Assembly (NCBI RefSeq): GCF_000982825.1
Contig: NZ_CP011047.1
Location: 1,398,690 to 1,462,689, forward strand
Origin: Cronobacter sakazakii
GTDB lineage: Bacteria; Pseudomonadota; Gammaproteobacteria; Enterobacterales; Enterobacteriaceae
Direction: 5' to 3'
DNA length: 64,000 nucleotides
The notes beneath the pieces were generated by a model. The model did not search any database, was not told where the DNA came from, and saw nothing but the letters and a program-made list of their open reading frames with translations. The translations under genes and the position numbers were made by a program. Positions 7,930 through 38,939 of the stretch are shown piece by piece. Within the stretch, counting starts at the first letter, position 1, and every line of letters starts with the position of its first letter.

Positions 7930-9471
<1,542 letters not shown>

Positions 9472-9549
9472 CCTGAAAGATACAACCTCGCGTGCTCACA
9501 CAGATTGTCTGATAGAAAGTAAAGAAGCAGGGTTGTCTGCGAAAGCGAA

Positions 9550-9625
9550 GTCCCTTTCGTCTAGAGGCCCAGGACACCGCCCTTTCACGGCGGTAACAGG
9601 GGTTCGAATCCCCTAAGGGACGCCA
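9550..9625 (+). tRNA. tRNA-Glu (UUC) in the 16S-23S spacer
   Basis: GTCCCTTTCGTCTAGAGGCCCAGGACACCGCCCTTTCACGGCGGTAACAGGGGTTCGAATCCCCTAAGGGACGCCA. 76 nt with an encoded CCA. It is near-identical to E. coli tRNA-Glu. Confidence 0.95.
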
Positions 9626-9827
9626 CCTGCTGGTAATGAGTGAAAGGCGTTACCGATTGATATCTCAAAACTGACTGTAAAGTCGCGTTTGAGATATTTG
9701 CTCTTTAACAATCCGGAACAAGCTGAAAATTGAAACAGACACGCTGCTGTATTTCTCCGTAATAAGAAATGCGCGGTGTGTCAGAGTCTCTCAAACTCGC
9801 AGCACGAAGACTTCTTCGGGTTGTGAG

Positions 9828-12728
<2,901 letters not shown>

Positions 12729-12818
12729 TACAACGCCAAAGAAGTCTGGCGAGTAGAGAGACAATTCAGCTTGTGACGGATAAACGTTCATGGCGGAAGC
12801 GGTGAACGGAACAGAATT

Positions 12819-12938
12819 TGCCTGGCGGCTGTAGCGCGGTGGTCCCACCTGACCCCATGCCGAACTCAGAAGTGAAACGCCGTAGCGCCGATGGTAGTGT
12901 GGGGCCTCCCCATGCGAGAGTAGGGAACTGCCAGGCAT
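12819..12938 (+). rRNA. rrf: 5S ribosomal RNA
   Basis: TGCCTGGCGGCTGTAGCGCGGTGGTCCCACCTGACCCCATGCCGAACTCAG...GGAACTGCCAGGCAT, 120 nt. Confidence 0.95.
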
Positions 12939-24297: not shown

Positions 24298-24625
24298 CCG
24301 GTGGGTGCGCACGGCTTACCCACCCTACAACTGAAGCGTAGGGCGGGTAAGCGCAGCGCACCCGCCGTTCCCGTCATTATCCAACAACCACCATTTCCGC
24401 GATCCTCAACGCGCTGGTGGGTGCGCGTTGCTTACCCACCCTACAACTGAAACGTAGGGCGGGTAAGCGTAGCGCACCCGCCGTTCCGTCATTATCCAAC
24501 AACCACCATTTCCGCGATCCTCAACGCGCCGGTGGGTGCGCACGGCTTACCCACCCTACAACTGACGCGTAGGGCGGGTAAACGCAGCGCACCCGCCGTT
24601 CCGTCATGATCCAGCACCCATCATT
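24298..24625. repeat. tandem BIME array: ~116-bp unit, about 2.8 copies. Each unit is an inverted REP pair plus a conserved ~55-bp spacer
   Basis: The unit CCGGTGGGTGCGCACGGCTTACCCACCCTACAACTGAAGCGTAGGGCGGGTAAGCGCAGCGCACCCGCCGTTCCCGTCATTATCCAACAACCACCATTTCCGCGATCCTCAACGCG recurs at ~24298, ~24415 and ~24530 with a few substitutions. Confidence 0.85.
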
Positions 24626-24758
24626 CCCGCCTAATTCAACTCCCGGTTGACCCTTCATATACCCACCCGCCAATACTTCCTCCGGTTAATTACTTATACT
24701 CATCAAAGGAGCGGCATCGCGCCTGCTTCTTAGGAAAACACAACGATAAGGAGAAGCC

Positions 24759-26390
24759 GTGTTAACGCTGTTACACCTGCTTTCTGCTGTGGCGCTGCTC
24801 GTCTGGGGCACTCACATCGTGCGTACCGGCGTCATGCGCGTCTTCGGCGCGCGCTTAAGAAGCGTGCTCAGCCGCAGCGTTGAGAAAAAACCGCTCGCCT
24901 TCTGCGCGGGCATTGGCGTGACGGCGCTGGTGCAGAGCAGCAACGCCACCACGCTGCTTGTCACCTCGTTCGTCGCGCAGGATCTGGTGGCGCTGACGCC
25001 CGCGCTCGTCATCGTGCTTGGCGCGGATGTCGGTACGGCGCTCATGGCGCGCGTGCTCACCTTCGATCTCTCGTGGCTCTCGCCGCTGTTGATTTTTATC
25101 GGCGTCATCTTCTTTCTGGGCCGTAAACAGAGCCGCGCCGGCCAGCTCGGGCGCGTCGCTATCGGCCTCGGGCTGATTTTGCAGGCGCTGGAGCTCATCG
25201 TGCAGGCGGTTACGCCCATCACCAACGCCTCTGGCGTACAGGTGATTTTCGCCTCGCTCACCGGCGATATCATGCTCGACGCGCTGATAGGCGCGGTGTT
25301 CGCGGTCATCAGCTACTCAAGCCTGGCGGCGGTTCTGCTCACCGCGACGCTCACCGCCACGGATGTCATCTCCTTTCAGGTGGCGCTCTGTCTGGTGATT
25401 GGCGCAAACCTCGGCTCCGGCCTGCTCGCGATGCTCAACAACGGTGCCGCCAGCCCGGCGGCGCGGCGTGTGGCGCTCGGCAGTCTGCTGTTTAAGCTGG
25501 TGGGCAGCGTGCTGGTACTGCCTTTCGTGCCGCTGCTGGCGCAATCCCTGCACAGGCTGCCGGTAGAGGAATCGGAGCTGGTTATCTATTTCCACGTCTT
25601 CTATAACCTCATCCGTTGCCTGGTGATGGTGCCCTTCGCGGGCATGATGGCGCGTCTCTGTCAGCGCATCATCCCGGACGCCCCGGAAACCGATCTGCGC
25701 ATGAAGCCCCGGCATCTTGACCCGAGCGCGCTGGACACGCCAGCGCTGGGCCTCGCCAACGCCGCGCGCGAAACGCTGCGCATCGGCGACGTGCTGGAGC
25801 AGATGCTGGAGGTCTACGGCAAAGTGATGCATGGCGAACCGCGTCAGGAGAAGACACTGCGGCGGCTCGCCGACGACGTGGATGTGCTCTACACCGCCAT
25901 TAAGCTTTATATGGCGCGCATGCCGAAAGAAGATCTGGCGGAAGATGAGGCGAAGCGCTGGGCGGAAATCATTGAAATGTCGCTAAATCTTGAACAGGCG
26001 GCGGATATTCTGGAGCGTATGGGCAGCGAAGTGGCGAATAAATCGCTGGCCGCGCGCCGCGCGTTTTCACCAGAAGGCGTGAAAGAGCTGGATACGCTGC
26101 TGGAGAAACTGACCGCCAACCTGAAGCTCAGCCTGTCGGTCTTTTTCGCGGGTGACGTACAAAGCGCTCGCCGCCTGCGACGCCATAAGCACCGTTTTCG
26201 CATTCTCAACCGCCGTTACGCGCACGCCCATGTGGACCGGCTGCATCAGCAAAACGTGCAGAGTATCGAAACCAGCTCGCTGCATCTGGGGTTGCTTGGC
26301 GATATGAAGCGACTCAACTCGCTGTTCTGCGCCGTGGCCTACAGCATCCTCGAACAGCCGGATGACGATGAGGAGCGGCTGGAAGAGTAG
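24759..26390 (+). CDS. yjbB: YjbB, a Na+/phosphate cotransporter (PNaS family) membrane protein
   Basis: 543 aa. GTG start after TAAGGAGAAG. The N-terminal half is polytopic and hydrophobic, and the C-terminal half is a soluble PhoU-like domain. Same length as E. coli YjbB. Confidence 0.85.
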   Translation: MLTLLHLLSAVALLVWGTHIVRTGVMRVFGARLRSVLSRSVEKKPLAFCAGIGVTALVQSSNATTLLVTSFVAQDLVALTPALVIVLGADVGTALMARVLTFDLSWLSPLLIFIGVIFFLGRKQSRAGQLGRVAIGLGLILQALELIVQAVTPITNASGVQVIFASLTGDIMLDALIGAVFAVISYSSLAAVLLTATLTATDVISFQVALCLVIGANLGSGLLAMLNNGAASPAARRVALGSLLFKLVGSVLVLPFVPLLAQSLHRLPVEESELVIYFHVFYNLIRCLVMVPFAGMMARLCQRIIPDAPETDLRMKPRHLDPSALDTPALGLANAARETLRIGDVLEQMLEVYGKVMHGEPRQEKTLRRLADDVDVLYTAIKLYMARMPKEDLAEDEAKRWAEIIEMSLNLEQAADILERMGSEVANKSLAARRAFSPEGVKELDTLLEKLTANLKLSLSVFFAGDVQSARRLRRHKHRFRILNRRYAHAHVDRLHQQNVQSIETSSLHLGLLGDMKRLNSLFCAVAYSILEQPDDDEERLEE

Positions 26391-26406
26391 CCTTACAAAG
26401 CCGCTT

Positions 26407-26682
26407 TTATGATTTAACCGTTAAACCGAGACCCAACGCTTTCATCACTGCCAGCGTGGTTTTAAGCGTTGGGTTGCCTTTATCACTGAAAGAACGGTAC
26501 AGCTGTTCACGCGACAGCCCTGTCTGAGCGGCGATATGCGACATGCCTTTAGCGCGCGCGACGACGCCCAGCGCCTTTGCAATATGTCCGGCGTCGCCAG
26601 TTTCGAGCGCGTCCGCCATAAAGAAGGCGATCTCCTCATCATCTACCAGCGCCGCTGCGGGATCGTATTCGGTCAGCTTCAT
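26407..26682 (-). CDS. type II antitoxin, an HTH antidote protein of the HigA/COG3636 type
   Basis: 91 aa, MKLTEYDPAAALVDDEEIAFFMADALETGDAGHIAKALGVVARAKGMSHIAAQTGLSREQLYRSFS... RBS is GGAGATAATGTG. It is translationally coupled to the upstream toxin gene, whose stop lies inside this RBS. Confidence 0.75.
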   Translation of the reverse strand: MKLTEYDPAAALVDDEEIAFFMADALETGDAGHIAKALGVVARAKGMSHIAAQTGLSREQLYRSFSDKGNPTLKTTLAVMKALGLGLTVKS

Positions 26683-26686
26683 CACA

Positions 26687-26992
26687 TTATCTCCACTGGT
26701 TCTCTGGCAGGTCAGCCAGCATTTTCGCAAGAAGAATGTCTTTATCCTGCGTGTGCTTATCACCACCACAAAGCAAAATGACAATCACCTCGCCGTGTTG
26801 TTTGAAATAAATCCGGTCACCCGCGCCGTAGTGAATACGCAGTTCACTGATGCCTGCGCCGACGGGCTTAACATCACCAGGCAAACCATTAGCCAGCCGA
26901 AAAAGCCGCGCGGCAATCATCGTTTTTACCCGCTGGTCTTTCAGACTGGCTTGCCAACGGCGGAATACCTCAGTTTGAAAAATATGCTTCAT
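26687..26992 (-). CDS. type II toxin, RelE/ParE superfamily (addiction-module killer, HigB-like, placed upstream of its antitoxin)
   Basis: 101 aa, MKHIFQTEVFRRWQASLKDQRVKTMIAARLFRLANGLPGDVKPVGAGISELRIHYGAGDRIYF... It follows the conserved pattern of killer proteins that pair with COG3636 antidotes. The toxin-first gene order is HigBA-like. Confidence 0.7.
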   Translation of the reverse strand: MKHIFQTEVFRRWQASLKDQRVKTMIAARLFRLANGLPGDVKPVGAGISELRIHYGAGDRIYFKQHGEVIVILLCGGDKHTQDKDILLAKMLADLPENQWR

Positions 26993-27208
26993 AACGCTCC
27001 CTGTATTTTAAAAACTACATGCGAATTCTACAAGTCTGCTCAGGGAGAATAAGTTTCATAAAAAAGGGAACAAAGGCGTCAGTAATGAATCTGGAAGACA
27101 TGCCGAAAGATGCCAAAAAACCTCGCTGATGGCGGGGTTTTTTATTTTATCGTGAAAGCTGGACGCTGTTTTTTATACCCATAAAGGTATAATCAGAGGG
27201 AACGCAAC

Positions 27209-27559
27209 ATGATAAAACCGTTGTTTTGGGTCGGGCAGGCCAGAAAAGATCTTCAGGCGCTGCCGGAGGATGTACAGGATCTTTTTGGCTATGCGCTTTA
27301 TCTGGCGCAGCAGGGTAGACGCCATCCGCAGGCCAGGCCGCTTAAAGGTTTTGGCGGCGCGGGTGTACTTGAGGTGGTGGAGGATTATCAGGGGAATGCC
27401 TTTCGGGCGGTCTATACCGTGTGCCTGAAAGATGCGATTTATGTCCTGCACGTATTCCAGAAAAAATCCTCTTCCGGGATTGCCACGCCCCGCCCGGAGA
27501 TGGAAAAAATTGAACAACGACTGAAAGCCGCGCAACGCCACGCCGGAGGGCTGAAATGA
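27209..27559 (+). CDS. type II toxin, RelE/ParE superfamily (Gp49/DUF891-like HigB-type)
   Basis: 116 aa, MIKPLFWVGQARKDLQALPEDVQDLFGYALYLAQQG...AVYTVCLKDAIYVLHVFQKKSSSG... This is the phage-Gp49-like toxin fold signature (VYVLH.F.KKS). An ATGA overlap joins it to the next ORF. Confidence 0.7.
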   Translation: MIKPLFWVGQARKDLQALPEDVQDLFGYALYLAQQGRRHPQARPLKGFGGAGVLEVVEDYQGNAFRAVYTVCLKDAIYVLHVFQKKSSSGIATPRPEMEKIEQRLKAAQRHAGGLK

Positions 27560-27879
27560 CAGCAGACATTGAACGCAGTAACGGAAATGTGTATGACGAT
27601 CTCGGGCTTATCGACGCCGAAGAGATGCAGCTAAAAGCGCAGCTCGCTATGGCCGTTAGCGACATTCTTAAAGCGCGCGGCTTAACCCAGCAGGAGGCGG
27701 CCCGTCTTCTGGGCATGACCCAGCCAAAACTTTCTTTATTACTTCGCGGCCAGTTTCGCGGGATCAGCGAAACGAAAATGATGGCCTGCCTGATGCTCCT
27801 CGGGCGGGATATCAGTATCGTCGTCGGCGAAGCACAACAGGCGCGCGGAAAAATGCGCCTGATTTATGAGCCAGCCTGA
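27556..27879 (+). CDS. type II antitoxin, XRE-family HTH (HigA-like)
   Basis: 107 aa. It has an HTH, ...LTQQEAARLLGMTQPKLSLLLRGQFRGIS... Its start overlaps the toxin stop by 4 nt. Confidence 0.7.
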   Translation: MTADIERSNGNVYDDLGLIDAEEMQLKAQLAMAVSDILKARGLTQQEAARLLGMTQPKLSLLLRGQFRGISETKMMACLMLLGRDISIVVGEAQQARGKMRLIYEPA

Positions 27880-27905: not shown

Positions 27906-28178
27906 TTAACGCCGTCCCCGCACGGGCGTGCTGGCGGACCATGAAAAGGTCGCGTCGCTGTCCGGTTTATACGCCTGCGCTTTTTTCTGTTTGCGCGTCT
28001 GCTTCGCCGCCTGTTCGCGCTGCGCCATCAGCTTGTCGATATACTCTTTTTTGACGTGGTTGGCTTCGGAATTGGTAAGCGGGCGGCCATGGGCGATGCG
28101 GGCGCGGTCGAGCAGGGTTTTTAATTCGCGCTGTTCGCTTTCCGTCATCTCTTTCTGGGTCAGTCGGGGCAGGGACAT
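27906..28178 (-). CDS. yjbD: YjbD (DUF3811) small protein
   Basis: 90 aa, MSLPRLTQKEMTESEQRELKTLLDRARIAHGRPLTNSEANHVKKEYIDKLMAQRE... I matched it from memory to the E. coli YjbD that lies next to lysC. Confidence 0.6.
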   Translation of the reverse strand: MSLPRLTQKEMTESEQRELKTLLDRARIAHGRPLTNSEANHVKKEYIDKLMAQREQAAKQTRKQKKAQAYKPDSDATFSWSASTPVRGRR

Positions 28179-29344: not shown

Positions 29345-29382
29345 ACAAATTATGATGAAAAGCCCTCATTCAGGGGCTTTAA
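29345..29382 (-). terminator. rho-independent terminator of rtcR, overlapping its stop codon
   Basis: On the minus strand: AAAGCCCC TGAATGA GGGCTTTT followed by CATCATAATTTGTTT. Confidence 0.65.
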
Positions 29383-30958
29383 CCTGCTCCCAGCTCAGCC
29401 CAAAACGCGCCAGATATTTACGCAGCCGGTCGGCGTCGTTCGGGTTGGCTTTCTTCTGGCGCGAAACCGCAAACAGCGTGCGTCCGGCCTCAGAGAGCGA
29501 GGCGCTACGCCTGCACACGGCAACAACCGCCGCCAGCTGATCCTGGTCGAAGAGATCGAGCGTTGCGGTATCAACAGGCAGCGCGGCGGCAGGGTCTGCG
29601 AGCGGCCGCCAGCTCGCGGTAAGACGGCCGATTTCTTCCTCGACTAACGCGTCGGTAATGCGTCCCTGTTCGGCAAGCGTCGCCATGCGTGCCACCGAGC
29701 TGCCCAGTTCGCGAAAGTTGCCCGGCCAGCGCGCCTGCGGCGAGCAGGCGAAGGCGAGATAATTTTCGCGCGCCGTTTTATCAAAGCGGATCTGCGTCTG
29801 CTGCTGCGCCGAGAAGCGCTGTAGCTCATACTCCACGTTTGGCGCGATATCCTCGCGGCGCTCGGCGAGGCCCGGCAGCGCGAAGGCCCACATATTAATA
29901 CGCGCAAAGAGATCTTCACGAAAGCGGCCTTCGGCGACCCATCGCGCCATGTCGCGGTGCGTACCGGCGATCAGCTGAAAATCGCTCTGCACTTCTTTAT
30001 CCGCGCCGAACGGGAAAAAGGTCTTTTCCTCAATAGCTTTCAGCAGCATCGCCTGTTCATCGAGCCCCAGCTCAGCGATTTCATCCAGAAACAGCACGCC
30101 GCCGTCGGCCTCGCGCAGAAGCCCTGGCCGCGCCTGCTGCGCGCCGGTAAACGCGCCCTTCACGTGGCCAAAGAGCGTCGACATCGCGTTATCGCCGCGA
30201 AGCGTCGCGCAGTTCACGGAGACCAGTTTTCCCTGCACCAGATGCCGCGCCTGGCGCAGCTGGAAAATGCGCTTTGCGAGAAACGATTTCCCCGCGCCGG
30301 TCGGCCCCGTCAGCAGAATCGGCGCGGTGGATCGCAGCGCCACGCGCTCGATCTGGTCGATCAGACGGTTAAACGTGGCGTTACGGGTGTCGATGCCGGA
30401 TTTGAGGAACGACACCGACTGCTGCTGCTCGCGCTGGAAGCGGCTGGTCAGCGTCGCATAGCGGCTTAAATCGAGATCGATGACCGACGTCGTGCCGATG
30501 GTTTTCTGCGCTTCATCGTCGCCCTGACGATCGGGGCTGGTCTGTAACAGCGCCGCCGGGAGATACCGCGCTTCGGTCAGCAGGAACCAGCAGATCTGCG
30601 CCACGTGCGTGCCTGTTGTGATATGCACCAGATACTCTTCGTTATCGGTATCAAAGGGATAGCGCGTGGCGAAATCCAGCAGCGCGGCGTACACCTCCTC
30701 GAAATCCCACGGATCGTCCATCACCACGGTGTGCGGGCGTACTTCGGTATGCGGCGAGACGGCGGCGATATCTTCTGTGACCCGCTCTGCGAGCGACGCG
30801 TCGCGCGCCTGGTACAGCAGTTCAAAGCGGTCGACAGGCAAACCGGGCTGCTGGCACAGCGCGACGGACGGACGCCATTTATTCCAGCGGTTGGCGCGCT
30901 TACCGCGCCGGTCCAGTACGGTGCCCAGCATGCCAATCACCACGCGACGCTTTTGCAT
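29366..30958 (-). CDS. rtcR: sigma-54-dependent transcriptional activator RtcR (CARF sensor domain plus AAA+ domain)
   Basis: 530 aa. It is colinear with E. coli RtcR: the N-terminal CARF (…VGTVLD…WRP…HITTGTHVAQICWFLL…), the central AAA+ sigma-54-interaction domain (GPTGAGKSF, GAFTGA, ESELFGH-like FGHVKGAFTGA), and the C-terminal ...DADRLRKYLARFGL. Confidence 0.9.
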   Translation of the reverse strand: MQKRRVVIGMLGTVLDRRGKRANRWNKWRPSVALCQQPGLPVDRFELLYQARDASLAERVTEDIAAVSPHTEVRPHTVVMDDPWDFEEVYAALLDFATRYPFDTDNEEYLVHITTGTHVAQICWFLLTEARYLPAALLQTSPDRQGDDEAQKTIGTTSVIDLDLSRYATLTSRFQREQQQSVSFLKSGIDTRNATFNRLIDQIERVALRSTAPILLTGPTGAGKSFLAKRIFQLRQARHLVQGKLVSVNCATLRGDNAMSTLFGHVKGAFTGAQQARPGLLREADGGVLFLDEIAELGLDEQAMLLKAIEEKTFFPFGADKEVQSDFQLIAGTHRDMARWVAEGRFREDLFARINMWAFALPGLAERREDIAPNVEYELQRFSAQQQTQIRFDKTARENYLAFACSPQARWPGNFRELGSSVARMATLAEQGRITDALVEEEIGRLTASWRPLADPAAALPVDTATLDLFDQDQLAAVVAVCRRSASLSEAGRTLFAVSRQKKANPNDADRLRKYLARFGLSWEQVKAPE

Positions 30959-31094
30959 CTCTTATCCTTAAAGATAAATAACGATATTAAAAGATAAATC
31001 ATACGCCTTTCTGTTATAGCCGTCGCGTATCGAATAAAAAATTTATCTCTTAATAATCAACATATTAAAAATTTATTTTCACCTTAAACGAAAC

Positions 31095-31110
31095 TGGCAC
31101 GCATCTGGCA
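31095..31110 (+). promoter_or_regulatory. sigma-54 (-24/-12) promoter of the SPFH-rtcB-NTase operon
   Basis: CTGGCACGCATCTGGCA. The GG and GC are correctly spaced (TGGCAC N5 TGGCA, against the consensus TGGCAC N5 TTGCA). It is divergent from rtcR, which is the expected arrangement for an RtcR target. Confidence 0.7.
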
Positions 31111-31433
31111 ATTATCACTTCGTCAGCACGCTGGGTATGCAGGGGTTTATAGCCCCGCCGGCGCACCGGGAACGGTAACACGTTATCCAGGGGGCGTTCC
31201 GCCAGTGCAATGACGTGGAAAACGTTCGGTTTATCAGGTTCGACTCCTGAACTTTCTTTCTCCTTCCAGAGAAACGTTAAAAGCAGTACCCCGGCGGTTG
31301 AGTCGTTAGCGACCGCCACACACTGACGCCGGTAACGGCGCCGGGCGGCAGGCAGAAAAGACCGGAACAGAGGTGGCTTCCCCCTCCCGCTTCGCGCCGT
31401 TATCCGCGTCAGCCACAACAGTAAGGGAAAAAA

Positions 31434-32567
31434 ATGAATAACAAAGTGACGATTCGTAAGGGCCAGCTGGGTTTACTGGCAAAACAGGGTGATTTTTATC
31501 AGGTGCTGGAAGCGGGCGAGCATCGCCTGCCGTGGTTCAACAAACCGGATGTGACGCTGGTGGAGATGAACAGCGGTGACGTCGCGCCGGCGCTGACCGA
31601 CTATCTGCGCCGTTTTCAGCCAGAATGGGTAGAGAAATATTGCCTGGCGGTTGATACCGCCGATAACGAAACCGCGGCGCTGTGGCGTAACAACGTGCTG
31701 GTGGAAATTATCCCGCCGGGTGCGCGGCGTCTCTTCTGGCGCGACGGCGACAGCCTGCGCGCCGTGCGTATGGATACCCGCGACGTGCAGGTGCCGACGG
31801 AGATAATGGCCGCCGTGTTACAGCCGCGCGGCCGTGATGTCGTAGTGAAAGGGCGCGACGCTATCCTGACCGTTAACGTGCCCGCCTGGCATGTGGGCGT
31901 GCTGAAAATCGACGGCGTTACGCAGCCGCTGCTGCCGCCAGGCTTAAGCGCGTACTGGAAAATCAACCATCTGGTGGAGGCGGAAGTCGTGGATACGCGC
32001 CTTCAGGCGATGGAAGTCTCCGGGCAGGAGATCCTGACCAAAGATAAAGTGAACCTGCGCATTAATCTGGGGGCCAACTGGCGCTATCAGGACGTGTTGC
32101 AGGCGTACAGCCAGCTTGCCAAACCGCTGGAGCATTTATACCGCGAGCTGCAGTTTGCGTTGCGAGAGGCGGTCGGCACCCGCACGCTCGATGAGCTGCT
32201 GGAAAATAAACAGATCATCGACGATGTGGTGAGCGCGCAGGTTATCGCCCGTATGGCACCGTTTGGTATCGACGTGGCGTCGACCGGCGTGAAAGACATC
32301 GTGCTGCCGGGCGACATGAAAACGATTTTGTCGCGGCTGGTGGAGGCGGAGAAATCCGCGCAGGCGAACGTGATTCGTCGCCGTGAAGAGACCGCCGCGA
32401 CCCGTTCGCTGCTGAACACCGCAAAAGTCATGGAAAACAATCCGGTCGCACTGCGACTGAAAGAGCTCGAAACCCTGGAAAAAGTGGCGGAGCGTATCGA
32501 TAAGATCTCCGTATTCGGCGGCCTGGATCAGGTGCTGCAGGGGCTGGTACAGATTAAAGGGGTATAA
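31434..32567 (+). CDS. SPFH / band-7 (stomatin-prohibitin, slipin-like) domain protein with no evident N-terminal TM anchor
   Basis: 377 aa. It carries the SPFH signature (TKDKVNLRINLGANWRYQDV…LREAVGTRTLDELLENKQIIDDVV…GIDVASTGVKDIVLPGDMKTILSRLVEAEKSAQANVIRRREETAA). It is the first gene after the sigma-54 promoter and is 2 nt from rtcB. Confidence 0.75.
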   Translation: MNNKVTIRKGQLGLLAKQGDFYQVLEAGEHRLPWFNKPDVTLVEMNSGDVAPALTDYLRRFQPEWVEKYCLAVDTADNETAALWRNNVLVEIIPPGARRLFWRDGDSLRAVRMDTRDVQVPTEIMAAVLQPRGRDVVVKGRDAILTVNVPAWHVGVLKIDGVTQPLLPPGLSAYWKINHLVEAEVVDTRLQAMEVSGQEILTKDKVNLRINLGANWRYQDVLQAYSQLAKPLEHLYRELQFALREAVGTRTLDELLENKQIIDDVVSAQVIARMAPFGIDVASTGVKDIVLPGDMKTILSRLVEAEKSAQANVIRRREETAATRSLLNTAKVMENNPVALRLKELETLEKVAERIDKISVFGGLDQVLQGLVQIKGV

Positions 32568-32569
32568 CA

Positions 32570-33796
32570 ATGAAAGAGAATCACTATCAGACGCTGGCGC
32601 AGGCTAACGGCGCGCCGGTAAAAATGTGGACCCACGGCGTGCCGGTAGAGCCGGAAGCGCGTGAGCAGCTGCTGAAAACGGCGAAAATGCCGTTTATTTT
32701 TAAACACCTGGCGGTGATGCCGGATGTGCATCTCGGTAAAGGCTCGACCATCGGCAGCGTGATCCCGACCAAAGGCGCGATTATCCCGGCGGCGGTGGGC
32801 GTGGATATCGGCTGCGGGATGATCGCGGTGCGCACGTCGCTCGTGGCGCGCGATCTGCCGGATAACCTGAGCGGGCTGCGCAGCGCCATCGAACAGGCCG
32901 TCCCGCACGGGCGCACCACAGGGCGCGGCCAGCGTGATAAAGGCGCGTGGTCGAACACGCCGCAGGATGTGGACCACCACTGGGCATCGCTTGCGCCGCG
33001 CTTTAAACGCCTGACGGATAAATATCCCAACCTGTTGAAGACTAACAATCATCAGCATCTGGGAACGCTCGGTACGGGTAACCACTTTATCGAGATCTGC
33101 CTTGATGAACAGGAGCGCGTGTGGGTGATGCTGCACAGCGGATCGCGCGGCGTGGGTAACGCCATCGGCACCCATTTCATCGGGCTTGCGCAGAAAGATA
33201 TGCAGCGCCATATGGCGAATCTGCCGGACCGCGATCTCGCCTATTTTGAAGAGGGCAGCAAGCACTACGCCGATTACATCGAGGCGGTGGAGTGGGCGCA
33301 GGATTTCGCGCGCCAGAACCGCGAAGTGATGATGAACCGCGTGCTGGCGGCGCTTTCCTCGATTATCACGAAGCCGTTTATGACGCAGCAGGAGGCCGTG
33401 AACTGCCACCATAACTATGTGCAGAAAGAGACGCATTTTGGTGAAGAGATCCTGGTGACGCGCAAAGGCGCGGTGTCGGCGCAAAAAGGCCAGATGGGCA
33501 TCATTCCGGGCTCCATGGGTGCCAAAAGCTTTATCGTGCGCGGGCTGGGAAACGAAGAGAGTTTTTGTTCATGCAGCCACGGCGCAGGGCGCGCGATGAG
33601 CCGTACCGCGGCGAAAAAACGCTTCACGGTGGAAGATCAAATCCGCGCCACGGCGCACGTGGAGTGCCGTAAAGACAGCGATGTCATTGATGAGATCCCG
33701 ATGGCGTATAAAGACATCGACGCCGTGATGGCCGCGCAGTCGTCGCTGGTGGAAATTGTGCATACGCTGCGTCAGGTCGTGTGCGTGAAAGGATAA
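32570..33796 (+). CDS. rtcB: RNA-splicing ligase RtcB (3'-phosphate/2',3'-cyclic-phosphate RNA ligase)
   Basis: 408 aa. It is colinear with E. coli RtcB (KMWT.GVPVE, PDVHLGKGSTIGSVIPT, GNHFIE, CHHNYV, SCSHGAGR). Confidence 0.93.
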   Translation: MKENHYQTLAQANGAPVKMWTHGVPVEPEAREQLLKTAKMPFIFKHLAVMPDVHLGKGSTIGSVIPTKGAIIPAAVGVDIGCGMIAVRTSLVARDLPDNLSGLRSAIEQAVPHGRTTGRGQRDKGAWSNTPQDVDHHWASLAPRFKRLTDKYPNLLKTNNHQHLGTLGTGNHFIEICLDEQERVWVMLHSGSRGVGNAIGTHFIGLAQKDMQRHMANLPDRDLAYFEEGSKHYADYIEAVEWAQDFARQNREVMMNRVLAALSSIITKPFMTQQEAVNCHHNYVQKETHFGEEILVTRKGAVSAQKGQMGIIPGSMGAKSFIVRGLGNEESFCSCSHGAGRAMSRTAAKKRFTVEDQIRATAHVECRKDSDVIDEIPMAYKDIDAVMAAQSSLVEIVHTLRQVVCVKG

Positions 33797-33809
33797 TTTT
33801 TAAGGAAAA

Positions 33810-34598
33810 ATGATGGAACTGAACGGGGTGGATGCCGCTATGCGCGAGCGCGTGCGGCAGGTGTTAAACGAGGTGCAAACAAAGTATGGCGTGAAGGTGC
33901 TTTACGCCTGTGAATCGGGCAGCCGGGGCTGGGGCTTTGCCTCGCCGGACAGCGACTACGACGTGCGCTTTCTCTATGTGCATCCGCCGGAGTGGTATTT
34001 ACGGGTCGATGCGCCGCGCGATGTCATCGAACTGCCCATCGACGACACGCTTGACGTCTGCGGCTGGGAGTGGCGCAAGGCGCTCGGGCTGCTCAAGCGG
34101 GCAAACCCGACGCTTATCGAGTGGCTCGACTCTCCCATCGTCTACCGGCAGGATGAAACCGCCATCGGCGCGCTGCGCGACCAGGTGCCGCTCTGGTTCT
34201 CCGCTGAGCGTGCGCGCTGGCACTACTACTCGATGGCCCGCAAAAACTTTCACAGTTATTTGCAGGGCGAGACGGTGCGGCTGAAGAAATATTTCTACGT
34301 GCTGCGCCCGCTGCTGGCGGTGCGCTGGGTGGAAGCGGGTAAGGGCGCGCCGCCGATGCGCTTTCGCACGCTGCTGGAGGGTACGGTGAACGATCCGCTG
34401 CTGCGGGCGGAAATCGACACGTTGCTTGCCGCCAAACAGCGAGCGGGTGAGGCCGAGTACGGCGCACCGATGCCGCGGATACACGCGTTTATCGCTGCAG
34501 AGCTGGCGCGCGGCGAAACGCCGCCGGAGCTGCCGCAGAGTGAAAAGGCGCAGGCGAGTCTGTTAGATAAGCTGCTTTATGAAACGGTGATGGCCTGA
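33810..34598 (+). CDS. minimal Pol-beta-superfamily nucleotidyltransferase (pfam10127-like), RtcB-associated
   Basis: 262 aa. The NTase motif is ...LYACESGSRGWGFASPDSDYDVRFLYV... (the GS plus DxD pattern). It sits 13 nt after rtcB in the same operon. The family assignment is from memory and has not been searched. Confidence 0.55.
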   Translation: MMELNGVDAAMRERVRQVLNEVQTKYGVKVLYACESGSRGWGFASPDSDYDVRFLYVHPPEWYLRVDAPRDVIELPIDDTLDVCGWEWRKALGLLKRANPTLIEWLDSPIVYRQDETAIGALRDQVPLWFSAERARWHYYSMARKNFHSYLQGETVRLKKYFYVLRPLLAVRWVEAGKGAPPMRFRTLLEGTVNDPLLRAEIDTLLAAKQRAGEAEYGAPMPRIHAFIAAELARGETPPELPQSEKAQASLLDKLLYETVMA

Positions 34599-35999: not shown

Positions 36000-36220
36000 C
36001 ATCATGTATGGCGGAATCTGTTCAGCCTGGGCACAAGGAAAGCGCAGTAAAGGGGCGGACGCAGGAGTATAAAACCAACGTTACGATACACCCAGAAGCG
36101 CTCCACCTTGCGAAACGTTCGACTGCCGTCGTTTCGGGTGACAGCCCAGGGGATTCAGCCCCTGCAGCCGATGACGCGCCTTACCAGACAGCGCGCCATC
36201 TCGGCGTCGTTCCCCCTCGC
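36000..36220 (-). promoter_or_regulatory. lysine riboswitch (L-box) in the lysC 5' leader
   Basis: The minus-strand leader reads ...GCCGAGATGGCGCGCTGTCTGGTAAGGCGCGTCATCGGCTGCAGGGGCTGAATCCCCTGGGCTGTCACCCGAAACGACGGCAGTCGAACGTTTCGCAAGGTGGAGCGCTTCTGGGTG... This is nearly identical to the E. coli lysC L-box aptamer. The boundaries are approximate. Confidence 0.75.
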
Positions 36221-36290
36221 GTGTGGTCGTAGGACGGGTTCCTCGCACACGTTACCTGGCCGACGCGCCTCTTCCGGTTTTCCTTCATAT

Positions 36291-38558: not shown

Positions 38559-38588
38559 TTTTAAATAAGCGTGTCAAATAAGCGTAAT

Positions 38589-38617
38589 GATGCCGGCAAT
38601 ATGCCGGCATTTTTTTC
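38589..38617 (+). terminator. pgi terminator
   Basis: ATGCCGGCAATATGCCGGCAT followed by TTTTTTT. Confidence 0.85.
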
Positions 38618-38939
38618 TCAGATAAATCTTGTTGTTCGCCCACGTCCCGCTACTCTTTAATCTTGAGGTTAATCCGAAAATCGCCGTGCCCGTCTTCTGC
38701 ACGCCTGAAATGTTTCAGATAAACCGGATTTCCATTTTGCAGGGATATATTATAACAAGTTGAAAAACAGGCGATTTATATAAAATCTATTACGCCATCC
38801 TGCGCCATTTGTCTAATTATCCTAAAACCCTGTGCCTATTTCCCTGTGTCGTAAACCGGCAGGGGTTGTTGTGTATACTCGGAAGCGCCTGAAAAGCTTT
38901 TCAGGTAAATCTCCATTCATTCAATGAAGGGAAATTGAT

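Follow-up and report, generated by a model that had tools for sequence, protein, structure and literature searches.

Two back-to-back, toxin-first type II toxin-antitoxin modules of RelE-superfamily type between yjbB and yjbD in Cronobacter sakazakii

Between yjbB and yjbD, Cronobacter sakazakii carries four small genes, and the question which they raise is what they encode and whether they reached this place together. The DNA analyzed here, called the window, is a stretch of 64,000 nucleotides of contig NZ_CP011047.1 (assembly GCF_000982825.1, positions 1,398,690 to 1,462,689), and coordinates are counted from its first letter. An original prediction, made from the letters alone, described the four genes as two divergent type II toxin-antitoxin (TA) modules, took them for one compact acquired cassette and suggested a link with the neighbouring Rtc RNA-repair locus. 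We put at roughly 0.85 the probability that they are two independent chromosomal RelE-superfamily type II TA operons, each with the toxin gene first, which reside in a TA hot spot of the Enterobacteriaceae and lie close to rtc by coincidence. Family membership and fold are established by the matches given below; every other step of the mechanism is our inference. The genes of the interval and its flanks are as follows.

24759-26390, plus strand: yjbB, Na/Pi cotransporter family, left flank, convergent with A1
26407-26682, minus strand: A1, 91 amino acids (aa), helix-turn-helix (HTH) antidote of the dnstrm_HI1420 family (TIGR02684, COG3636)
26687-26992, minus strand: T1, 101 aa, RelE-superfamily toxin of the upstrm_HI1419 family (TIGR02683, COG3657)
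27209-27559, plus strand: T2, 116 aa, Gp49/Tad-type RelE-superfamily toxin (PF05973, COG4679)
27556-27879, plus strand: A2, 107 aa, HTH_37/XRE antitoxin of the Ata/COG5606 type (PF13744)
27906-28178, minus strand: yjbD, DUF3811, right flank, convergent with A2

The list of open reading frames (ORFs) and the raw sequence gave the four genes at the coordinates, strands and lengths first predicted. Also reproduced were the ATGA at 27556-27559 shared by the T2 stop and the A2 start, the outer gaps (16 bp from A1 to the stop of yjbB, 26 bp from A2 to that of yjbD) and the inner gap of 216 bp. T1 and A1 are separated by 4 nt; the Shine-Dalgarno sequence GGAGA of A1 overlaps the last two codons of T1, with the TAA stop directly 3' of it, and A1 is probably translationally coupled to T1. 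The position is, as had been said, the place of pepE-rluF in E. coli K-12, where the order is metH-yjbB-pepE(-)-rluF(+)-yjbD(-)-lysC.

The identity of the genes was established by profile searches, in which Pfam matches were listed at E <= 0.01 for the proteins of the window. T1 matched TIGR02683 (upstrm_HI1419) with E 5.6e-35 and 119.6 bits against a cut-off of 62.85, and A1 matched TIGR02684 (dnstrm_HI1420) with E 3.3e-36 and 123.3 bits against 53.7, both over the full length of the model; A1 additionally matched PF21716 (E 3.1e-24). For T2 the match was PF05973 (Gp49; E 9.7e-23, 80.5 bits, gathering score 23.9) and for A2 it was PF13744 (HTH_37; E 3.9e-26, 91.1 bits against 27). Because the matches of these hidden Markov models range from E 1e-22 to 3e-36 and all exceed curated cut-offs, the ORFs are not chance ones. 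Both members of the TIGR02683/TIGR02684 pair exceed the trusted cut-off, and the toxin gene immediately precedes that of the antidote; T2, above the PF05973 gathering score, lies upstream of a PF13744 gene as in the Gp49/Tad type. T1 scored 20.1 bits against PF05973, under the cut-off of 23.9, and is therefore not a Gp49 member at the Pfam level; several of its close homologs do carry PF05973. In PHROGs, T1 falls into phrog_3445 ('toxin') and A1 into phrog_4268 ('transcriptional repressor'). Neither toxin matched the canonical HigB families PF05015 and PF09907 at E <= 0.01, and what T1-A1 and T2-A2 have in common with HigBA is only the gene order, not the HigB Pfam family. PADLOC-DB v2 gave no match for T1, A1 or T2, and only weak HTH matches for A2 (E 5e-4 to 2e-3). 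The two modules are not a duplication of one another, because comparison of the toxin profiles showed only a remote likeness (hhalign E 0.023) and that of the antitoxins no relationship; cross-neutralisation between them would be unlikely.

Both modules are members of known and already annotated families, catalogued since 2009. Makarova et al. 2009 listed both pairings, COG4679-COG5606 (Tad-Ata) and COG3657-COG3636 (PMC2701414). Exact-sequence look-up, which points to Cronobacter and not Enterobacter as the source, found all four proteins in C. sakazakii records, e.g. AKE94303-AKE94305, under the NCBI names 'type II toxin-antitoxin system RelE/ParE family toxin', 'addiction module antidote protein' and 'XRE family transcriptional regulator'. 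Relatives of at least 90% identity occur in C. malonaticus, C. turicensis and C. universalis. As A1 and the commonest T1 allele are each present on at least 1000 contigs, the modules are near-universal in C. sakazakii and already annotated. None of the 10 primers for five toxin genes used in the Cronobacter TA survey of Finkelstein et al. 2019 matches the window with up to 3 mismatches.

Module 1 resembles the HI1419-HI1420 pairs of Haemophilus influenzae in matching both models in the same toxin-upstream order, and differs in that the T1 allele of the window carries the change Y59D, to which we return below. TIGR02683 and TIGR02684 are NCBI 'hypothetical equivalogs', families which are defined by conserved pairing and not by tested function, and the literature searched yielded no characterised member of the upstrm_HI1419/dnstrm_HI1420 family. 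Module 2 is like the Tad-Ata and Gp49-HTH systems (tad-ata of Paracoccus aminophilus pAMI2; gp49 of phage N15) in its toxin-first order, its overlapping antitoxin of about 107 aa of XRE/HTH_37 type, its upstream palindrome and its RelE-superfamily fold. It differs from them in being chromosomal, in a fixed yjbB-yjbD slot, and the likeness drawn here is at the level of family; no phage record matched it at 60% identity or more.

The fold was examined with AlphaFold models of T1 and T2 built from 30-sequence alignments and compared with the PDB by Foldseek. The T1 model has a mean predicted local distance difference test score (pLDDT) of 89.6 and the secondary structure beta-alpha-alpha-beta4-alpha, and the pLDDT of the T2 model is 73.9. 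For both models the top PDB matches are HigB2 of Vibrio cholerae (5JA8, 5JAA) and HigB1 of Mycobacterium tuberculosis (Rv1955; 7AWK, 7NBU), with E. coli RelE also among them and ParE ranking lower. T1 superposes on M. tuberculosis HigB1, including the ribosome-bound form 7NBU, with a TM-score of 0.72 and a root-mean-square deviation of 2.2 A. HigB1 and HigB2 are ribosome-dependent mRNases encoded upstream of HTH antitoxins, the order seen here; identity over the aligned stretches is only 13-25%, and the likeness of T1 and T2 to them is at the level of fold. At the sequence level, a PDB search with T1, T2 and A1 gave noise alone and no similar chain, and A2 resembled the structural-genomics HTH proteins 2O38 (E 3.5e-16) and 2A6C. 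A possible likeness of A1 to CopA(SO) of the Shewanella ParE(SO)/CopA(SO) pair was dropped when this search gave it no support.

The same results bear on whether the toxins could be ParE-like gyrase poisons and not mRNA endonucleases. The NCBI name 'RelE/ParE family toxin' and the presence of ParE among the weaker fold matches speak for such an activity. Neither T1 nor T2, however, matched the ParE family PF05016 at E <= 0.01, the best folds are HigB2, HigB1 and RelE, and characterised Gp49-family toxins degrade RNA (PMC5906591, PMC11980606), so that gyrase poisoning seems very improbable. Gerdes and colleagues described PF05973 as about 22,000 ribosome-dependent mRNA-degrading toxins with toxin-antitoxin gene order (PMC11980606), and the Gp49-type HigBA of Acinetobacter baumannii comprises an RNase and an antitoxin which neutralises the toxin and autorepresses (PMC5906591). 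The matches to TA families and the RelE/HigB fold together bear out the prediction of two divergent, toxin-first type II TA modules.

Whether they came as a unit was approached by comparison with 80 yjbD loci, one per species, among the matches listed and with Cronobacter not among them, onto which the proteins of the window together with PepE and RluF were mapped; Cronobacter comparisons rest on five contigs obtained through exact-protein look-up. In almost every genus sampled rluF adjoins yjbD, and both pepE and rluF are absent from all 64 kb of the window. The orthologous Franconibacter interval lacks pepE and rluF as well. Orthologs of T1-A1 (58-74% and 74-90% aa identity, respectively) directly adjoin the yjbB 3' end, taking the pepE slot with rluF kept, in 7 loci belonging to Atlantibacter hermannii, two Leclercia, Enterobacter bugandensis, Enterobacter genomosp. 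O, Trabulsiella and Yokenella. Orthologs of T2-A2 (72-75% and 59-67% identity) are found upstream of rluF in 5 loci, of two Kluyvera, Pseudocitrobacter, Citrobacter sp. FP75 and Enterobacteriaceae UBA7338. Of the loci compared, those of Cronobacter alone combine the two modules. The interval does vary across relatives, as the prediction had required of a mobile element, and is empty in Salmonella enterica, with 26 bp between yjbB and yjbD. In 5,426 E. coli genomes searched with megablast, the region had no match.

In Leclercia, Enterobacter, Trabulsiella and Cronobacter the yjbB stop is directly succeeded by the A1 3' end, and Franconibacter, the closest genus sampled, has a 32-aa A1 remnant at the same place. 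Being conserved across genera, the tight yjbB/A1 junction is an old common feature and not a sign of recent arrival. Within the genus, four other C. sakazakii contigs show the same architecture with a 216-bp inner region. The C. turicensis locus L082 (GCA_044734315.1) has the order yjbB, 119 bp, T2-A2, yjbD, and lacks module 1 by the following segment.

26390-27087, no strand: 698-bp segment with T1-A1 and its promoter, absent from L082 (break points from blastn and the L082 sequence)

The 8-nt sequence CTGGAAGA stands at both edges of this segment (26379-26386 and 27091-27098). Since Franconibacter retains the A1 remnant, parsimony favours a loss of module 1 in C. turicensis.

Between C. sakazakii and C. 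turicensis, the ratio of non-synonymous to synonymous substitution rates (dN/dS) is 0.13 for T2 and 0.07 for A2, and both genes are under purifying selection. Their dS values (0.26 for T2, 0.49 for A2) are near those of the flanking genes (yjbB 0.29, yjbD 0.35), which fits vertical descent within Cronobacter. For A1 against its orthologs in other genera, the proportion of non-synonymous differences (pN) is 0.07-0.10 and that of synonymous differences (pS) is 0.64-0.86; between genera the synonymous sites are saturated, yet pN is far below pS in all four genes.

On this evidence the claim of one compact acquired cassette is not supported. The modules are unrelated and are found singly at the orthologous slot in several other genera; the yjbB/A1 junction is common to several genera, and L082 lacks module 1 only. 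The fuller form of that idea is that the four genes are one recently acquired mobile cassette whose toxins make the RNA ends which RtcB repairs or RtcR senses. It draws on the tight junctions of 16 and 26 bp, on the frequency of both toxin families on plasmids (420 and 920 records), on the rtc operon about 1.5 kb away and on biochemistry, since the ends left by RelE-type cleavage could in principle be ligated by RtcB, and RtcB acts on tmRNA, a RelE cleavage target (PMC9650030). Against it stand the separate modules at orthologous positions elsewhere, the similarity of dS to that of the flanking genes within Cronobacter, and an interval in which the ORF list and the repeat scan showed no integrase, transposase or cassette-wide terminal repeats.

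The rtc data weigh against it further. Presence of the rtc genes was scored between panS and lysC in the 62 species in which both flanks could be seen, and it proved independent of that of the TA genes (Fisher P 0.19 for T1-A1, 1.0 for T2-A2 and 0.76 for any RelE-type toxin), and many genomes have TA modules without rtc at the locus, or the reverse. According to Hughes et al. 2020, the activating ligand of RtcR is a tRNA 5' half with a terminal 2',3'-cyclic phosphate (PMC7790460). In S. Typhimurium, deletion of three RelE-family toxins, including the rtc-adjacent YafQ cassette and divergent HigB/HigB2, left tRNA-fragment accumulation and rtc operon activation unaffected (PMC7790460). S. Typhimurium resembles the present case in having back-to-back RelE-family modules and, beside an rtc operon, a RelE-family cassette; its TA families differ from the Cronobacter pair and its HigB/HigB2 are proposed to share a LexA site (PMC7790460), and by inspection the Cronobacter 216-bp intergenic region has no LexA box CTGT-N8-ACAG. 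With toxins dispensable in Salmonella and a tRNA half, not an mRNA fragment, as the RtcR ligand, the suggested Rtc link is not upheld. A general biochemical link of RtcB with RelE is conceivable, and nothing ties such a link to this neighbourhood; we regard the cassette with an Rtc role as extremely unlikely.

As for the rtc locus itself, panS and rtcR lie beyond yjbD, and the locus occupies 29366-34598 of the window with rtcR followed by the divergent genes for an SPFH/Band_7 protein (31434-32567), RtcB (32570-33796) and RlaP (33810-34598), the last being an 'RNA repair pathway DNA polymerase beta family' nucleotidyltransferase. No match to rtcA was found in the rtc operon of the window. A canonical sigma-54 promoter, TGGCACGCATCTGGCA, precedes the operon at 31094-31109. 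The four-gene rtc block between panS and lysC is present in some genera and absent in others.

The 216-bp inner region contains these candidate regulatory features.

27002-27033, minus strand: candidate T1-A1 promoter/operator, its function suggested by conservation
27090-27143, plus strand: locus-specific conserved motif (TCTGGAAG...CCTCGC) in a degenerate copy, with the terminator-like hairpin at its end
27115-27143, bidirectional: terminator-like hairpin AAAAAACCTCGC-TGATG-GCGGGGTTTTTT (terminator scan, inverted repeat I3)
27173-27192, plus strand: candidate T2-A2 operator TTATACC-N6-GGTATAA, conserved among T2 orthologs

The candidate T1-A1 promoter consists of a -35 element TTGTAG (27033-27028), a 17-nt spacer and a -10 element TAAAAT (27010-27005), and the imperfect palindrome TGTAGTTTTTAAAATACA (27019-27002) overlaps its -10. 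The form TGTAGTTTATAAA(A/C)TACA is kept upstream of T1 orthologs in 8 other loci of at least 6 genera and is perfect over 16 nt in A. hermannii (L003); a TTGnnn hexamer exactly 17 nt upstream of a -10-like hexamer was read in 4 of the 8. This site was not mentioned in the original prediction and is better conserved than the T2 site. The latter had been proposed as an autoregulatory operator, which is plausible given its conservation, at coordinates that needed correction by about 1-2 nt to 27173-27192. TATAAT at 27188-27193 overlaps it, 15 nt upstream of the T2 ATG, and TATA(C/T)C-N5/6-G(G/A)TATAAT is kept upstream of T2 orthologs in 5 other genera (six including Cronobacter). The palindrome by itself does not exceed chance: in 1000 dinucleotide shuffles of the 216-bp region, in which perfect 6-nt inverted repeats were counted, 18% gave at least as many. 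Its weight therefore comes from conservation in six genera and not from chance statistics. It is uncertain that this TATAAT is a true -10 element, because a transcript starting about 7 nt 3' of it would begin within the Shine-Dalgarno sequence.

The hairpin at 27115-27143 has 13 pairs followed by a T run; it is the strongest terminator-like hairpin of the area and is conserved in five of five Cronobacter loci. In L082 its counterpart sits 29 nt past the yjbB stop, placed as a yjbB terminator, and a CCTCGC/GCGGGG stem likewise follows the yjbB stop in Enterobacter locus L029. The stretch 27030-27165 has no counterpart outside Cronobacter in the sampled loci. Terminators had been said to be missing, which holds for the two outer junctions and fails for the centre. 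Nor is it supported that the promoters share the 216-bp region, as was first thought; the two candidate promoter/operator sites lie about 170 bp apart with the hairpin between them. A 14-codon ORF at 27086-27130 was rejected both as a small gene, its start codon being absent in C. turicensis, and as an old C-terminal tail of YjbB, whose end position is the same in all genera.

A separate question is whether both modules are still active. In the T1 of the window residue 59 is Asp (codon GAC, plus strand 26816-26818), and this is the sole difference from the commonest C. sakazakii allele, which has Tyr59. Tyr or Phe occupies the position in 29 of the 29 other members of the 30-sequence alignment, the residue adjoins an invariant Arg in the motif GxG(Y/F)RIYF, and in the profile alignment it faces a conserved aromatic-Arg pair of the T2 family. 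The D59 allele is present on 32 contigs and is for this reason a lineage variant and not a sequencing error. Y59D may weaken T1. One or both modules could accordingly be decaying, with an inactive toxin and antitoxins kept as regulators, chiefly module 1 of this strain. Decay is visible elsewhere at the locus, in A1 fragments of Franconibacter and Buttiauxella, an A2 without T2 in Pseudescherichia vulneris, a 77-aa T1 form in C. malonaticus and the C. turicensis strain without module 1. On the other side, all four ORFs here are full length, the common T1 allele with Tyr59 is the one on at least 1000 contigs, T2 and A2 are under purifying selection, the promoter and operator motifs are intact, and the effect of Y59D on T1 is a prediction from the alignment. 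We consider decay unlikely, while granting it a real share of the probability.

Several points weigh against the reading of two independent, working TA operons. Toxicity, neutralisation, RNA cleavage and operator binding are inferred for these proteins and for their relatives of >50% identity. Neither toxin has a close homolog of solved structure, and confidence in the T2 model is only moderate. The -10-like hexamer of each operon stands only 3-4 nt from the Shine-Dalgarno sequence, which means that the promoters are misassigned or that the leaders of the toxin mRNAs are very short. As a speculation, short leaders might hold toxin translation below antitoxin translation; alternatively, the hexamers are parts of the operators and transcription starts at other sites. 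The species compared in the Fisher tests are phylogenetically non-independent. The direction proposed for the module 1 indel depends on parsimony from one Franconibacter remnant, and with synonymous sites saturated between genera an old horizontal transfer into the slot would look the same as vertical descent.

Under the preferred reading of two independent operons, the modules may work as follows. Free T1 (HI1419/COG3657) and T2 (Gp49/Tad) would be RelE/HigB-fold endoribonucleases which cut mRNA in the ribosomal A site and halt translation. Each would be held inactive by tight binding of its own HTH antitoxin, A1 of the HI1420 type and A2 of the HTH_37 type, supplied from the same transcript by translational coupling across the 4-nt gap or the ATGA overlap. 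Each antitoxin, with or without its toxin, would repress its own promoter through the palindrome at 27002-27019 (module 1) or 27173-27192 (module 2). There would be no common promoter, and the hairpin between the two sites would be the one placed as a yjbB terminator in the strain without module 1. As to history, module 1 would have occupied the pepE slot and module 2 the place upstream of that of rluF, positions in which their orthologs are found singly in other genera; the disappearance of pepE and rluF from the Cronobacter locus would then have left them back to back.

The slots themselves are rich in such modules. When toxin-gene matches within 10 kb of yjbD were counted, 41 of the 80 species had at least one TA toxin gene, from five families, and in loci where only rluF was recognised the extra 600-900 bp between rluF and yjbB also encode TA modules by Pfam. 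CcdA/CcdB occupies the slot in Atlantibacter, Enterobacter and Franconibacter; in Siccibacter and Enterobacter sp. kpr-6 it is taken by RelB/YafQ. Enterobacter and Pseudenterobacter have there a second, distant Gp49/HTH_37 type, 27-41% identical to T2, which Klebsiella, Kosakonia and Citrobacter carry between panS and yjbD. Two TA modules together are also seen in Pseudocitrobacter and Citrobacter sp. FP75. The other modules located in the slots, in the coordinates of their loci, are these.

L001, 10322-10875: TA module
L004, 11250-11860: TA module
L011, 11245-11866: TA module
L016, 9133-9824: TA module
L037, 11202-11893: TA module

A non-coding motif of about 45 nt, (A)ATCTGGAAAGCGCCTCGCAG-N12-18-GTGAC, recurs around the locus (L008, L016, L018, L022, L029, L031, L037, L061, L069, L083 and others), and the copy of the window at 27090-27143 is degenerate. 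Its distance from the gene downstream is 98-99 nt for T2 orthologs, 105-154 nt for the distant Gp49 toxin genes (at two different sites) and 85-87 nt for rluF where the locus has T1-A1 alone; in Enterobacter it comes directly past the yjbB stop. No Rfam family matched it. A role as part of a mobile cassette was rejected, the motif being essentially absent from 72,556 plasmids and without an Rfam match. It has a sigma-54-like GG-N10-GC spacing in which the GG is not invariant; as a sigma-54 promoter it is a weak candidate, since the first G of GG is T in 12 of 66 matches (about 20 coding-sequence matches included) and the real sigma-54 promoter of rtc looks different. The sole good plasmid match to the motif is in NZ_CP151862.1 (Citrobacter freundii, 425 kb), at about 267-272 kb, which also carries the closest plasmid-borne T2 homolog (74% identity). 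This record may hold a copy of the present chromosomal region or be a misassigned replicon.

It is tempting to regard the slots around yjbD (yjbB-rluF and panS-yjbD) as a dedicated TA exchange site across the Enterobacteriaceae, marked by the 45-nt motif; we consider this a doubtful proposal, quite unlikely to hold as worded. If it were true, at least five unrelated type II TA families would replace one another at these slots, and the motif, 85-154 nt upstream of the slot occupant, might be a recombination or regulatory site which directs or drives incoming modules. The Cronobacter hairpin at 27090-27143 would then be a degenerate copy of the motif.

Other features of the window may be recorded. 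Between metH and yjbB, at 24300-24700, tandem units resembling repetitive extragenic palindromic (REP) elements appear as repeated short ORFs with near-identical translations on both strands; their number appears to vary among C. sakazakii strains, the metH-yjbB spacing being 536 bp in L086 against 235 bp in both L087 and L088. Rfam matches are a complete rRNA operon (16S, tRNA, 23S, 5S) at 7930-12936, a lysine riboswitch upstream of lysC at 36088-36281 and the small RNA STnc430 at 38579-38738.

As it stands the finding matters little, the families being known and the exact proteins already named by NCBI, and only the hot-spot pattern and the conserved motif carry any novelty. Its value is partly corrective: proximity to rtc is not to be read as functional, and what looks like a cassette is two independent residents of a hot spot. 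The natural Y59D allele could be a ready-made attenuated control for the HI1419-type family, and for TA specialists a single chromosomal slot which holds five TA families across genera offers a lead.

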